From positions 1 through 30,456 of the IMG/VR virus record IMGVR_UViG_3300034355_000190: a stretch of DNA of 30,456 nt; one strand, written 5' to 3'. The notes below the pieces were generated by a model. That model worked only from the letters and a program-made list of their open reading frames with translations. It was not told the DNA's origin and ran no database searches. Shown here piece after piece: positions 6,251 through 21,060 of this stretch (its first letter is position 1; every line of letters starts with the position of its first letter). The stretch comes from a virus. Lineage: Duplodnaviria > Caudoviricetes. The position numbers and the translations under genes are program-made.

Positions 6251-6272
6251 TTTCTCTTGTGCTCGTTATCAT
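6244..6272 (+). promoter_or_regulatory. Candidate sigma70-like promoter for the antisense lipoprotein gene
   Basis: TAGCCA (6244-6249), 17-nt spacer, TATCAT (6267-6272), upstream of GAGG and ATG 6301. Confidence 0.3.
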
Positions 6273-6300
6273 TCCGCGTTTTCACGCAGAGGGTTGGTCA

Positions 6301-6543
6301 ATGAAAAGTCTTTGGCTTGTTGCGGTTCTTGCGGTCGGCGCGTGTGCGTCAACTCAGAGCTTGACGCTTCCTGATGGCCGGGTCGCGTCAGTGGTCGATT
6401 GCAGCAATACGTGGTCGTCGTGGCCCGCCTGTCATGAGGCGGCGCGAAAATCGTGCGGCGGAAATTACGAAGTGGTCCGGCAGACCGAATACGCGCGCGG
6501 CATCAAGCCAATTCGAGAATTGACTTACGTGTGTGAGGCTTAG
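6301..6543 (+). CDS. Small lipoprotein, 80 aa (moron, possible superinfection exclusion)
   Basis: ATG 6301 with GAGG at 6289-6292; MKSLWLVAVLAVGA-C signal peptide and lipobox; four further Cys; fills the gap between two minus-strand genes. Confidence 0.8.
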   Translation: MKSLWLVAVLAVGACASTQSLTLPDGRVASVVDCSNTWSSWPACHEAARKSCGGNYEVVRQTEYARGIKPIRELTYVCEA

Positions 6544-16538: not shown

Positions 16539-17087
16539 TTATCGGATGAACTTCAGAAGCGTCATTGGCTTCTGGTAGTGCTCGTAAATCTCTGTCGCGG
16601 CCTGGATCAGCACGAAGCCGTGCGCCGCAAATGCTTCGGCGTATTCGGACGGCTCGCGGTTGAAGACGGGCGGATCACCCTCACGCCGCCACTCCCTGCC
16701 CATCATCTCGCTGACGTAGACAACCGGCGCTTTCATCCGGCCAATCAGCGCGTCCAGTTCGTCGTCAGGGACGTGCATCAGGACGGTATGGATCAGGTAC
16801 ACGTCGCCTTGCGGAAACTCGTCCTGCACCACGTCAAATGCATGGAGAGGGTTTCTCTCGATCGCCTCGGCAATGCTCCGCTCGTTCAGGTCAACGCCAA
16901 GGTAGGCGTGCGGCTTGAATGCGCAGGCCAGTCGTCCCGGCCCGCATCCGATCTCGACCACGAAGCCATGCGAGGCGACTTCAGCAAGATACGGCAGCAG
17001 CCACGCGCCTTCCGGGTTAGCCTTGCCTGCTGGGGTAATGTGGCGAACGCCGTTCTGTGCTCGCCAGAAATCCGCAGCTAGTTCCAT
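16539..17087 (-). CDS. Class I SAM-dependent methyltransferase, 182 aa
   Basis: VVEIGCGPGR (motif I), YLGVDL (motif II), HTVLMHVPD. Confidence 0.85.
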   Translation of the reverse strand: MELAADFWRAQNGVRHITPAGKANPEGAWLLPYLAEVASHGFVVEIGCGPGRLACAFKPHAYLGVDLNERSIAEAIERNPLHAFDVVQDEFPQGDVYLIHTVLMHVPDDELDALIGRMKAPVVYVSEMMGREWRREGDPPVFNREPSEYAEAFAAHGFVLIQAATEIYEHYQKPMTLLKFIR

Positions 17088-18451
17088 AAGGCTGTCTCAT
17101 GTGGCCGCGGCTGGCCGTGATAGAAGACGACACGCGCATCGTCAGGAACACCGTCCCCGCATTGCGCCTTGAAGCTCACAAGCTGGCCCGGCACGATGTC
17201 CTGTAACCGCATCGCCATCGGCATGTGCTGCCCGATGAACGCCTGATCTCCACGCGGGTCATCGGTCGGGCAACCAGCGTCCTGCCATGCCTGCCAGACA
17301 TGATCCGCCTCGCCTGCCGTCCAGCTCATGATGCCTGAGCCCATCTGGCCCGGCTGCCACACGTCACGCAGGCCAGCGAACGGGCCGTCGTAATCCATGA
17401 GGTCGGTCAGATCCCCGGTGATGACCGTGTCCAGATCGAAGTAGACGCAGCGCTCGCCCTTGTTGAACCGGCCAGGCTCAAACATCTGCATCTTTGCCCA
17501 CCAGTTCGCAGGCCCTTCACGCAGGACATGGAACTTGGCCTTGCCCTGATAGTTCTTCGCCACACCGCTGAGCAGGTGCGAGACGTAGTCCTCGCCCCGT
17601 CCGAGATAATTTCCCGTGGCGACGCATATGACGTTCAGCGGCTTCGTCGAGGCCCGGCGCGGCCAGTTGGCGATGAGGTTAGCGCGCTCCCGCACCATGC
17701 TCTGAAGCAGCCCGTCGCCGTGGAAGTTGACCACAGGCTTGTCCGCATCCAGCGCGAACACTTCCTGCATCTGGAACCAGTCCGTGCATTGCGTCAGGAA
17801 ATTGTTGTCCGTGACGTAGCCGTTGATCTCGATCGTTCCGACCGTGCCATCCCTGCTGTCGGGATAGGCATGGGTCTGTGCGCCGCGATACGACGAATCC
17901 AGCCCGTGCATCTCGAATTTGCGGAACCCCATGTAATGACCGAGGTTGAGCCAGCGGATGCCCATCGTGGTCCCGCCTGCAATCATCGGCGTGCCGCGGG
18001 GGAGTGTTTCGCTGATCCCAGGGGCTCCGCTCGGATGCCAGAGGACGACCTTGCTGGTCTTCAGCTTGTCAAAGACGCTCGGATGGCAGGTGGACGCCAC
18101 GAAGTAGAACACGTCAGGATGCGGCTCGATCAGGTCCGCGATGTGCGGGCGAGCGTCCAGCAGGCCACAGGCCCAAGGCGTGATGGATTGCTCCAGAAGA
18201 TAACCCAGACCCGCATTGGCCGTGACAATGACGCCTTTGAGGTCATGGACTGTGTCCCTGAGAGAAGGGCCACCGCCCGCAACAGTCAGGGTATGACCGT
18301 GCGGGCGGCAGTGTTGCGGCATAGGCAGGCCCCGCCCCAGCGCCGAACGGACGTGCTCAAGCATCGTCTTGTTCGGCGTGGATACTTTCGGCGGGACCAT
18401 CGAGAGGACACGGGCAGCCGCGCCCGCGCCTCCGTCAGTTGCTCTCATCAC
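17078..18451 (-). CDS. Two-domain glycosyltransferase: Maf/DUF115-like N-terminal domain fused to a GT8-like GT-A domain, 457 aa
   Basis: N-domain: VAGGGPSL..TAN..LDAR..ASTCHP..GGTT.G..GFRKFEMHGLDSSY. C-domain: WWAKMQMF..YFDLDTVITGDL (DxD)..GDQAFI..VVFYHGQPRPHE. Confidence 0.78.
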   Translation of the reverse strand: MMRATDGGAGAAARVLSMVPPKVSTPNKTMLEHVRSALGRGLPMPQHCRPHGHTLTVAGGGPSLRDTVHDLKGVIVTANAGLGYLLEQSITPWACGLLDARPHIADLIEPHPDVFYFVASTCHPSVFDKLKTSKVVLWHPSGAPGISETLPRGTPMIAGGTTMGIRWLNLGHYMGFRKFEMHGLDSSYRGAQTHAYPDSRDGTVGTIEINGYVTDNNFLTQCTDWFQMQEVFALDADKPVVNFHGDGLLQSMVRERANLIANWPRRASTKPLNVICVATGNYLGRGEDYVSHLLSGVAKNYQGKAKFHVLREGPANWWAKMQMFEPGRFNKGERCVYFDLDTVITGDLTDLMDYDGPFAGLRDVWQPGQMGSGIMSWTAGEADHVWQAWQDAGCPTDDPRGDQAFIGQHMPMAMRLQDIVPGQLVSFKAQCGDGVPDDARVVFYHGQPRPHETALWN

Positions 18452-18991: not shown

Positions 18992-19803
18992 TCAAGGCGA
19001 AGAATCGTAGATCTTGAACGTGTGGACCGGGTTCTTCAGGACGACTTCGCCCATGAAGCCCAAATGTTGCACAATTGCATCCTGGTTGATCGGCATCTGC
19101 CGGCCACCGAAGCGCTCGAAGTTCCGCTGCGGGTTGTAGAAGAACTTGAGGTCTTCCATTGAGACGCCGTAGGTCACGTCATCCGGCATGGCCGAGCCAA
19201 CGCCGCCTTCGAGCACCACGTCGATCGACTTGCCAGCCCCATAATATTTCATGGCGCTGAAACCGCCTTTGCCGAGGCCGTTCTCATCGTTGATCCGCTG
19301 GATCGCCGTGAGGGCCGCGTCATACGCCTGATAGTGCTGCGTGGAGCAGACCAGCAGGTCGGGGCCTTTCTTGCCGCGCGAACGGGCGAACACCGCGTTG
19401 TTGAACAGCGGGCGGATGGTCGTCGATGTGACCGCCGTAATCGCCGTGCCGGCAACAGTGATGGAGTTCGCGTTGTAGGTCGTCGTGCGCCACTGGGTAT
19501 TGCTTACCCGGCTGATGCCGCCATACGAACCCGTCGAGGTCGTCGTCGGGATGGCAAGCTGCAAGCCGCCGATCTGGTTGTCAGCCGAACCTGCCGAGTG
19601 CATGTCTTCAACGAAGCGGTCCTGAAGTTCGGTTTCCGCCGCGTCGATGTGCATCTCGAACACGTCTTCAAGCTGGTTCGATCCGGCGTTTTGCAGGATC
19701 TCCTGGCCGGTCAGCATCATCGAAACGGCGCCCATCTTGGGGGTAAATTCCGCATCATTGAAGAGGTCGGTCGGGTTGGGTGAGAGGAATTGCGCGCCTT
19801 GGT
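18992..19803 (-). CDS. Major capsid protein, exon 2
   Basis: The frame extends upstream of the track's ATG 19735 as (T)AC CAA GGC = Y-QGAQFLSPNPTDLFNDAEFTPKMGAVS; capsid-like GQEILQNAG, IGGLQ, YGGISR...WR, PINQDA. The joined CDS is 199+812 = 1011 nt = 336 aa. Confidence 0.9.
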
Positions 19804-19983
19804 CAGTATTGTTATCGCGCGGCGTTTAAGCAGCGCTTCTGCATCTTCCGTAACGTTGATGCAGCTCAGACTATATCATCGCCGTTGTTGCGGCGTCGGG
19901 CGCTCGTGGGCGGGTTATTCTTTCGTCACCGCCTAGTCGTTGCACCTTCCGCATCCCTGACCCTTTCGGGCTACGTATGCGGC

Positions 19984-20012
19984 TTGGCTCAGGATTGTCG
20001 ATCCGGTATAAC
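19984..20012 (+). promoter_or_regulatory. Candidate sigma70 promoter for the intron HNH gene, antisense to the ribozyme
   Basis: TTGGCT (19984-19989), 17-nt spacer, TATAAC (20007-20012), about 75 nt upstream of the GTG start. Confidence 0.6.
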
Positions 20013-20086
20013 AAGAACGGTTCTTGCTCTGCCGGGATACGTCGGTTTTCCCTGAGTTCACCCGATTATTCGATTTGGAGTCGTCC

Positions 20087-20842
20087 GTGCCAAAGATCGT
20101 CAAGACGTGTGTTCGATGTGGTGATGACTTCTCAGTCTGGCCCTCGCGCGTGAAGTGGCAGGAAGCGCGTGGCCTTGAGGTCAAGTTCTGCTCTCAAGCC
20201 TGTACCGCAGCAGCGCGGTCTGAAGGCTTGATCGCTTCCCGTAAGCGCGAGGGCGAAGAGGTGCCGTGCGCGACGTGCGGTAAGCTGGTCTACATGAAGC
20301 AGTTCAGGCTGAAGACAAACACTCTTCACTTTTGCTCTCAGAAGTGTCGCACGAAAGCGATTTCCGAGAACCGCGTTGACCGCAAATTCGAGCAGGCGAG
20401 CGAGAAGAAGAGGACCGGCAAGTCATTCGCCTGCCGCATATGCGGCGAGAAGAAGTACCAGCGGATTTCCTATTACAACCGGAACGTCAACAAGACTTGC
20501 GGCAAGAGCGAGTGCGTATCTGCCTATGCCCGTAGTCGCTGGGGTCTTCCGCCCTGTTCGACCAACCATAGAAGAAGGTCAGCCGCGAGAGGAAAACTGC
20601 CACAACCGAAGCGAGCATCCAACTTCACAGCCAAACAGAAGGTTGAGTGGTTGGGTTGTAAGTGCGCTCGCTGCGGCACGACCGAGAACTTGGCTCTTGA
20701 TCACATCCTTGCAGTTTGTGCAGGCGGACTATCGACCAGGGACAATGCCCAGACGCTTTGTCAGCCGTGCAATAACTGGAAGTCTAAACACGTCGATATG
20801 CCCTTGGCGCGGGCAAAGAACAAACTCCGAAAAGCGGCTTAG
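20087..20842 (+). CDS. Intron-encoded HNH homing endonuclease with three N-terminal zinc-ribbon units, 251 aa, antisense to the host gene
   Basis: GGAG 20077-20080 then GTG 20087; three CxxCG..C...C units; C-terminal CARCGTTENLALDHILAVCAGG..DNAQTLCQPCNNWK HNH-type motif. Confidence 0.88.
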   Translation: MPKIVKTCVRCGDDFSVWPSRVKWQEARGLEVKFCSQACTAAARSEGLIASRKREGEEVPCATCGKLVYMKQFRLKTNTLHFCSQKCRTKAISENRVDRKFEQASEKKRTGKSFACRICGEKKYQRISYYNRNVNKTCGKSECVSAYARSRWGLPPCSTNHRRRSAARGKLPQPKRASNFTAKQKVEWLGCKCARCGTTENLALDHILAVCAGGLSTRDNAQTLCQPCNNWKSKHVDMPLARAKNKLRKAA

Positions 20843-20861
20843 TGGAGGCGATCCACGGTTA

Positions 20862-21060
20862 ACCGAGTATACGAGCCCGTCTCGTTGTAGAGCTGACGGA
20901 CGCGGATGGTTGGGCCGGAGTAGGTCTTGAAGCCCCCCCGGTTGCGCATGACGAAGAGGATGGCGTTGGCGTTGCTGACGAGGTCTTGCGTCCCCGGAGC
21001 ACGGTATTCCAGCGCCAGCGAGAAAGCTTCTCCAAGCTTCTCAACTGTTGTGAGTGCCAT
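20862..21060 (-). CDS. Major capsid protein, exon 1
   Basis: MALTTVEKL..DLVSNANAIL..KTYSGPTIRVRQLYNETGSYTR plus one T; directly follows the scaffold gene and joins exon 2 in frame. Confidence 0.9.

Follow-up and report, generated by a model that had tools for sequence, protein, structure and literature searches.

The locus raises the question of what divides a phage major capsid gene into two parts, and of how a second gene carried on the opposite strand of the dividing element could be expressed. The window (the whole stretch of DNA that was analysed, a partial virus record of 30,456 bases) contains a podophage head-tail module on its minus strand, comprising portal, head protein, capsid, tail adaptor, and long unannotated genes, and the sequencing runs with matching sequence are lake and freshwater metagenomes. 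The major capsid gene occupies two exons on the minus strand, at 20862..21060 (66 codons plus one base, ending in U) and 18992..19803. The second exon matched the major head protein profile phrog_9953 (E 6.5e-57) and was 99% identical to P0002, an intronless relative of 336 aa that matched the same profile with E 1.8e-65. On the basis of the profile matches (phrog_9953 and, distantly, SU10_MCP, PF17236) and the position of the gene in the head module, the product was assigned as a podophage major capsid protein; PF17236 matched two relatives and not P0002 itself, and no solved capsid structure matched the window capsid in sequence. The capsid family matched 51 annotated phage records, and 39 of the 40 cultured-phage matches listed among these 51 were single pieces. 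The nearest named capsids were from Agrobacterium (64%) and a Rhizobium phage (44.5%), and from these capsids only we infer an alphaproteobacterial host. Of the near-complete relatives, the closest two differ in whether they have the intron, and both encode tyrosine integrases; none was found in the partial 30-kb record. The window phage is likely a temperate freshwater podophage. A search of four records for a T7-type RNA polymerase found none, and the positive controls also gave no signal. Two further features of the module were noted: a methyltransferase plus MptE-like/glycosyltransferase fusion between the capsid and tail genes (16539-18451), possibly serving virion modification, and a lone plus-strand frame of 94 aa (6259-6543; phrog_5685, function unknown) among the minus-strand virion genes, its N-terminus being lipoprotein-like as judged by eye.

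Excision of positions 19804..20861 (minus strand, 1058 nt) gave a capsid protein of 336 aa that was identical to the intronless P0002 at 330 of 336 positions. Among the 20 in-frame joins in the vicinity that yield 336 aa, 20862|19803 was the single best match to P0002, with the neighboring joins reaching 326 to 329 identities. This junction leaves U as the last base of exon 1 and G (19804) as that of the intron, and it restores the host frame. The original prediction of a group I intron in the major capsid gene, including its exact boundaries and the 336-aa spliced product, was therefore upheld by the join, the terminal U and G, and the covarying core described below. The same alignment runs continuously across the join, as that prediction anticipated for homologous capsids, and the intronless alleles that it proposed to look for were found in P0002 (99% over exon 2) and in an intronless contig in run X8. 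The 73-aa stub expected from unspliced RNA was also recovered, the unspliced frame (20839-21060) stopping after 73 aa. The claim that capsid synthesis depends on splicing held in part: it follows from the finding of no second capsid gene in the window, itself a partial 30-kb record, but the splicing that it presupposes is inferred. The junction peptide that had been suggested as a diagnostic is identical in the intronless P0002 and therefore cannot prove splicing in a mixed population, and RNA runs X15-X20 contained 13-28% of the sequence words and provided no evidence on splicing. Guanosine-initiated, two-step splicing of the capsid mRNA is nevertheless predicted with high confidence. The exon-intron boundary (20855-20864) is also a perfect 10-base palindrome, which is shared with the related locus L266.

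The predicted ribozyme, all of whose elements lie on the minus strand, begins with P1 (20835..20865), in which the end of exon 1 (20865-20862, CGGU) pairs with the guide sequence (20838-20835, GCCG) to give a U.G pair at the splice site; an L1 hairpin (20856-20842) lies within the P1 region. P1 was present in the minimum-energy fold, which was no better than the folds of shuffled sequences (z -0.74) and so proves little alone. The 5' strand of a predicted P10 (20846..20850) pairs with exon 2 bases +5 to +9 (19799-19795), with five contiguous pairs in the window, six pairs including a two-sided compensatory change in L266, and a variable pattern elsewhere in the family. The 5' strand of a predicted P2 (20812..20828) pairs with 20091-20077; the duplex was calculated at -17.9 kcal/mol, a value equally low in 2 of 95 control pieces, and a P2 was predicted at p<=0.05 in 8 of 18 family introns. 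The core (19839..20065), defined by covariation and RNAalifold, comprises P3 (20065-20059/19902-19896), P4 (20055-20050/19994-19989), an extended P5 (20049-19995), P6 (19988-19987/19943-19942), P6a (19982-19977/19954-19949), P7 (19938-19934/19873-19869), P7.1 (19933-19929/19913-19909), P8 (19895-19891/19884-19880), and P9 (19864-19859/19844-19839). An extra 3' hairpin resembling P9.2 (19817..19836), in which all four of four pairs showed two-sided changes, precedes the terminal G.

RNAalifold applied to 17 related introns returned the same helices. When P7 was added to the core, 93.8% of 933 alignment cells paired and 38 of 55 pairs had two-sided changes, whereas none of 500 shuffles reached the observed value and slid controls paired at 34-38%; the structure was derived from the same 17-intron alignment, so the pairing test leans towards it. 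P7 was invariant in all 17 introns, and the other core helices covaried. The P, Q, R, and S elements of a group I core were found together with helices P3 to P9, so that the fold, the alignment, and the covariation agree with the earlier listing of P1 with its U.G pair, P3, P7, P8, P9, and P/Q/R/S. The group I model search proposed as a check gave a divided answer: RF00028 matched 19839-20112 on the minus strand with E 9.1e-11 in E-value mode, but its 47.8 bits fall below the gathering score of 50, and the default Rfam scan at that threshold returned no intron match. The true P1 sits 750 nt away, behind the HNH gene described below. By all sequence tests run, the window element is a true group I intron, which we take to be IA-like. 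It is not IA2, the T4-type class defined by P7.1 and P7.2 joined by G-U-A (PMC3428280), as a single P7.1 hairpin lies between P7 and the 3' strand of P3.

The rarity of capsid genes as intron hosts, implied by the original prediction, was overstated. The 819-bp intron in the major capsid gene of LittleE was shown to splice by RT-PCR and N-terminal sequencing (Pope et al. 2013, PMC3706429), a Tuc2009 capsid intron is cited in the same paper, and capsid genes of crAss-like phages carry group I introns (Yutin et al., PMC7886860). Among 56 distinct frames directly behind related IMG/VR cores, 20 best matched major head protein families (six PHROGs) and 7 matched DNA polymerase, in a sample biased by the derivation of the search motifs from a capsid intron. 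The capsid gene is thus not a rare host for group I introns. Apart from the window's own family, related cores precede head protein frames of five further PHROG families as well as tail sheath, tail tube, and head decoration genes (L015, L027, L030, L010, L020, L041, L048, L049, L064, L077, L086, L043, L066, L046, and L083).

The earlier reading missed three things: an HNH gene antisense to the ribozyme, the family of antisense HNH introns in this capsid family to which the window intron belongs, and a predicted promoter in P5 together with a partial copy of the target. The probable homing-endonuclease gene (20087..20842, plus strand; 251 aa from a putative GTG start) spans 756 nt, about 70% of the intron, and lies between P1 and P3 in loop L2, on the strand opposite the ribozyme. 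The protein matched Pfam HNH_5 and HNH above cut-off, together with zf-FCS, and is composed of three Cys-rich zinc-finger modules and a C-terminal HNH nuclease (model pLDDT 86, pTM 0.39). The closest solved sequence was 4h9d (E 3.4e-9), the catalytic His/Asn residues H206, N220, and N229 were invariant in 37 sequences, and dN/dS values of 0.18 versus L186, 0.16 versus L266, and 0.13 versus L187 indicate purifying selection. A ribosome-binding site, GGAG (20077..20080, plus strand), was recognized from the sequence and occurs at the same place in L266; the complement of the P2 3' strand is this site together with the start codon. At the other end of the gene, the final codons overlap the guide sequence (IGS). 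In all 18 family introns the HNH frame ends <=23 nt from the 5' splice site or past it, and in 8 of the 18 its stop codon exactly spans that site. The overlap of frame and ribozyme is like the 'core creep' of endonuclease frames into ribozyme sequence described in PMC3073962, but here it occurs on the antisense strand. A longer frame of 272 aa from TTG 20024 was rejected, as the homologues start at the column of GTG 20087 and the extensions read P3/P4 antisense. The enzyme is encoded in an intron at a site for which intronless alleles exist, and it very likely nicks or cuts intronless capsid genes near that site, the intron then being copied in by repair. By analogy with I-PfoP3I (PMC3428280), nicking would be the expected activity.

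To place the window intron among its relatives, family loci were fetched with the HNH alignment, taking rows of at least 72 bits as strong; the rows include duplicates of one contig. In 44 of 54 strong rows a group I core lay immediately upstream of the HNH gene, on the other strand, the remainder consisting of 8 that lacked upstream DNA and 2 true negatives (L286 and L218). The same capsid family lay opposite the HNH gene in 43 of 45 loci (several with weak scores), and the capsid was split near residue 60-71 where the contig had both exons. The best unconstrained in-frame join had the U and the G in 18 of 24 family loci, compared with about 5% of candidate joins; the splice sites of L197, L287, and L203 were set by a motif-constrained search and are not independent. 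Six loci (L220, L221, L222, L209, L193, and L186) were left out of the later analyses of family introns because of a weak join, another site, or near-duplication. Two insertion sites 9 nt apart were distinguished, A (that of the window) and B. Exon 1 ended in NGGU in 7 of 7 intron-bearing alleles at site A and in 6 of 73 intronless genes, in keeping with the pairing needed for P1. Several loci of the family are unusual. A second split of the capsid was seen in L195 and L198 (residues about 107-134), in L196 and L208 (about residue 266), and also in L194, L267, and L288, with a second group I core nearby at some of these seven. In L221 and L222 the capsid is split near residue 60 and the antisense HNH is more distant, possibly reflecting another intron subgroup; the core profile detected no core in these two. 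The database proteins P0007, P0012, and P0065 resemble exon-2 calls that were cut short, and in P0007 and P0065 the N-terminus reads like an intron 3' end at site A. Judged by eye, introns in distant members of the capsid family at L045 and L059 seem to contain endonuclease frames of other kinds, upstream of P3 in one case and within the core in the other.

The distribution of the intron is patchy, and core identity was related to HNH similarity (rho 0.37) and not to capsid identity (rho 0.01; 153 non-independent pairs), a pattern that bears indirectly on homing. In a FastTree phylogeny, the window capsid and the L266 capsid each lay beside an intronless sister, within a seven-row clade containing five intronless members. 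Intron pieces were found in four runs from four studies, one possibly being the source sample. Run X8 contained both alleles in one sample, as intron pieces and as an intronless contig joining 19795 to 20862. Within the three codons that directly follow the site (window 19796-19803), this contig shows three synonymous changes, one of them disrupting a predicted P10 pair, compared with 5 changes across about 386 bases elsewhere (p about 6e-5, from one contig); this suggests either co-conversion of the flank or escape from cutting. Contig depths in X11 were about 65 for the exons and 14.5 for the intron, values that are not readable as allele shares. Among cultured phages (the GenBank set), no family HNH was found, apart from two weak unrelated matches, and no DNA match to the ribozyme core. 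A short-type member of the family (types are described below), L287, comes from the isolate Sinorhizobium sp. CB7, where it lies within a phage head module on a contig of 42.5 kb. A free-standing HNH homologue of 48% identity occurs in a Rhodobacterales genome (L286:4001-4717), with neither intron core nor capsid gene; it adjoins a resolvase-like gene, as read by eye.

A simple sigma70 matrix was applied to the P3-P6 region on the HNH strand. In the window it marked a predicted HNH promoter at 19984..20012 (plus strand), with a -35 element TTGGCT (19984-19989), a 17-nt spacer, and a -10 element TATAAC (20007-20012) lacking the last T. The site is weak (score 7.2, shuffle p 0.105); the sequence at the same place in L266, with TACAAT, scored 12.0 (p 0.005). 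In alphaproteobacteria, the T at -7 is absent from most sigma70 promoters (PMC8407463). Scores of at least 10 were obtained for 17 of 30 HNH introns and for none of the 40 control cores or 30 sense strands. With the -35 element anchored at the base of P5, TAnnnT followed 16-18 nt on in 16 of 29 HNH introns versus 0 of 18 parsed controls, and the promoter spacers among the HNH introns were only 33% alike; 21 of 39 controls and 1 of 30 HNH introns were unparsed in this test, and some anchors were misplaced. Control introns contain TTGGCT as well, the -35-like hexamer being partly a by-product of conserved ribozyme sequence, and the window lacks a promoter at the usual position of the family. An automated promoter scan missed the site at 19984-20012; its sole result, a minus-strand promoter at 20093-20065, was taken as chance (1 found versus 0.6 expected).

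The predicted promoter overlaps a partial copy of exon 1. Positions 20007..20026 (plus strand), starting at the -10 hexamer, are identical at 13 of 20 positions to exon 1 bases -28 to -9 (20870..20889, minus strand), with which they are in codon register; the copy is a predicted operator and the exon stretch is the predicted binding part of the homing site. The window copy matches the L267 exon as well as its own, and the L266 copy (11/20) is not the best match in its own gene. An initial comparison of P5 with the insertion-site zone gave a combined p of 8e-5 versus 0.64 for the other strand (18 loci, two of them mis-cut). Among 510 capsid offsets, the six long-type introns matched best at -28 (z 6.6; the best reverse-strand value was z 4.4), and a locus's own exon beat other exons (p 0.017). 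For the 13 short-type introns, the promoter spacer matched the start of the locus's own exon 2 at offset +4/+5 (z 4.9), with 6.5 of 10 matches for own exons versus 4.9 for others and 0 of 20,000 permutations reaching this difference. The p values are optimistic, given that the loci are related to one another and that the sizes and registers of the compared segments were settled after inspection of the data, and per-locus scans of the whole gene were weak, the best match falling within -35 to +15 in 9-11 of 19 loci versus 4-7.6 expected. Two enzyme types with different DNA-binding regions would so keep copies of opposite flanks. At the family level, a partial copy of the homing site overlaps the endonuclease promoter. 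We consider it reasonably likely that the antisense strand of P5 is both a promoter and an operator of the I-TevI type, at which the HNH gene would be transcribed and would repress itself.

Taken together, these features suggest a self-splicing capsid intron with an antisense HNH gene, a promoter in P5, and repression through a copy of the target, a composite that we regard as probable. In late capsid mRNA the ribozyme would splice itself out, while the HNH enzyme would nick or cut intronless capsid genes and repair would copy the intron into them, so that it spreads. The HNH gene would be transcribed from the host-type promoter in P5 and would be self-repressed through the bound target copy. 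Given the antisense placement, the HNH protein would be neither translated from the abundant capsid mRNA nor amplified by it, and since the gene is antisense to that mRNA, ribosomes would presumably stay out of the ribozyme; in T4, translation of the endonuclease from within the td intron impairs splicing (PMC2988022).

The copy in P5 might instead act as RNA, its loop pairing with the exon and docking the splice site like an extra P10, in an intron whose antisense HNH gene is equally real. RNA pairing fits the short-type pattern, where most of the copy falls in the P5 loop and the mismatches favor G.U pairs 7 to 0 (counted in the 8 of 13 loci with at least 6 of 10 matches), and the copy-exon duplex of the window was calculated at -12.5 kcal/mol. 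In the long type, to which the window belongs, 13 transitions break a pair whereas 8 keep a G.U, the hairpin of P5 itself (-14.5 kcal/mol) takes up 14 of the 20 copy bases, and the copy has the same first base as the -10 hexamer. A DNA operator is favored for the long type because the G.U pairs are mostly broken and the copy lies in the P5 hairpin, and we consider the RNA reading improbable. We assign a similarly low likelihood to the copy being a functionless recombination scar left by the arrival of the HNH gene, with the gene expressed from another promoter or by read-through. The low identity of the copies (13/20 in the window and 11/20 in L266), the weak window promoter, and the presence of TTGGCT, partly conserved ribozyme sequence, in control introns are all compatible with a scar. 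However, the copy follows the capsid sequence of its own phage in a set of capsids with only 28-46% identity, as the permutations showed, which argues that it is not a scar, and correctly spaced -10 elements accompany 16 of 29 HNH introns and none of the 18 parsed controls, with spacers that are so little alike.

The intron could also be dead or poorly spliced, marking the allele of a defective or helper-dependent phage. Its Rfam score below the gathering threshold would agree with this, and antisense transcription through P5, P3, and P1 could conceivably block folding. Against it, all core helices are intact with P7 the same in every one of the 17 introns, intron pieces recur in four runs from four studies, an orthologous intron with a compensatory P10 is retained in a capsid 83% identical (L266), and the HNH gene is under purifying selection; moreover, the LittleE capsid intron, with its bottom-strand endonuclease, is spliced in vivo (PMC3706429). 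A dead intron is thus very improbable, and the self-splicing intron with a self-repressed antisense HNH gene remains the preferred reading.

A more speculative extension of the preferred reading concerns lysogeny. As close relatives encode integrases, a host-type promoter could fire in a lysogen, and self-limitation would then be useful. We tentatively propose, as a set of ideas unlikely to be correct jointly, that P5 has a dual role as an RNA scaffold for capsid splicing and an antisense-strand DNA promoter/operator; that the prophage makes low, self-limited amounts of HNH enzyme while the capsid gene is silent; that incoming intronless relatives have their capsid gene cut by the enzyme and are thereby blocked or converted; that the antisense RNA damps leaky capsid splicing; and that the P5 copies give, purely from sequence, the binding sites of about 40 uncharacterised zinc-finger HNH enzymes. 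PhiPA3 gp210 provides a precedent for use against incoming relatives (10.1101/2023.09.30.560319). For nuclear introns, PMC9548176 describes as unsolved the question of how expression of a gene that lies antisense to its ribozyme can spare the host RNA, and the window family makes this question testable, with the short-type CB7 member amenable to culture. The P5 copy would predict the DNA target of each HNH enzyme, normally a slow step. In genome annotation, introns of this kind narrowly miss the Rfam threshold, and the capsid genes that they interrupt are called in truncated form, examples being P0007, P0012, and P0065.

Parts of this arrangement have counterparts in known systems. The accessible portions of PMC3706429 describe LittleE as having, like the window, a capsid-gene intron with U at the exon end and a terminal G, a bottom-strand endonuclease (gene 14), and an intronless sister phage. 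LittleE is a Mycobacterium siphophage with a different capsid family, the type of its intron is called unclear, its enzyme is HNH in a legend and LAGLIDADG-like in the text, and those portions of the account describe no promoter, operator, or family; in the window, by comparison, covariation resolves the core, and the layout recurs throughout the family. The group I introns in capsid genes of uncultured crAss-like Delta and Zeta phages (PMC7886860) are similar in host gene, but the phages and the capsid differ, and the accessible text gives neither the orientation nor the regulation of an endonuclease. I-TevI of the T4 td intron (PMC2988022) resembles the window in the partial copy of the homing site over the endonuclease promoter (15/20 there, 13/20 here). 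However, I-TevI is a GIY-YIG enzyme encoded on the sense strand under a phage late promoter, whereas the window has an antisense HNH gene with a host-type promoter, and in the window the reverse complement of ribozyme helix P5 supplies both the predicted promoter and the copy. I-TevI was shown experimentally to bind and repress at its operator (PMC2988022); the window operator is a prediction.

I-DirII and I-DsqI (PMC3073962, PMC9548176) share with the window an endonuclease gene antisense to the ribozyme, theirs with its own promoter, but they belong to myxomycete nuclear rDNA introns, in a eukaryotic setting with RNA polymerase II, spliceosomal introns, and rRNA as the host gene; I-DsqI, unlike the window enzyme, is a His-Cys protein encoded in P9 of an IE intron. 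I-PfoP3I of cyanophage Pf-WMP3 (PMC3428280) is likewise encoded in a phage group I intron, has a C-terminal HNH, and has a frame overlapping structural elements. It nicks its target; its intron, by contrast, interrupts a DNA polymerase gene and is IA2 with P7.1 and P7.2, and the frame runs through P6a-P7.2 rather than lying in L2. Within the literature as far as it was accessible, neither an antisense-strand promoter/operator in a ribozyme helix nor the HNH-intron family of the window was found, supplementary intron tables being a place that could bear on the point, and in the accessible text of PMC3984707 and PMC11878797 neither 'antisense' nor 'capsid' occurs. Capsid introns, an antisense endonuclease in one capsid intron, and the I-TevI operator are known separately; what appears to be new is their combination, conserved across a family of uncultured podophages, with the predicted promoter and target copy placed in the P4-P6 domain and the guide sequence written by the last HNH codons.
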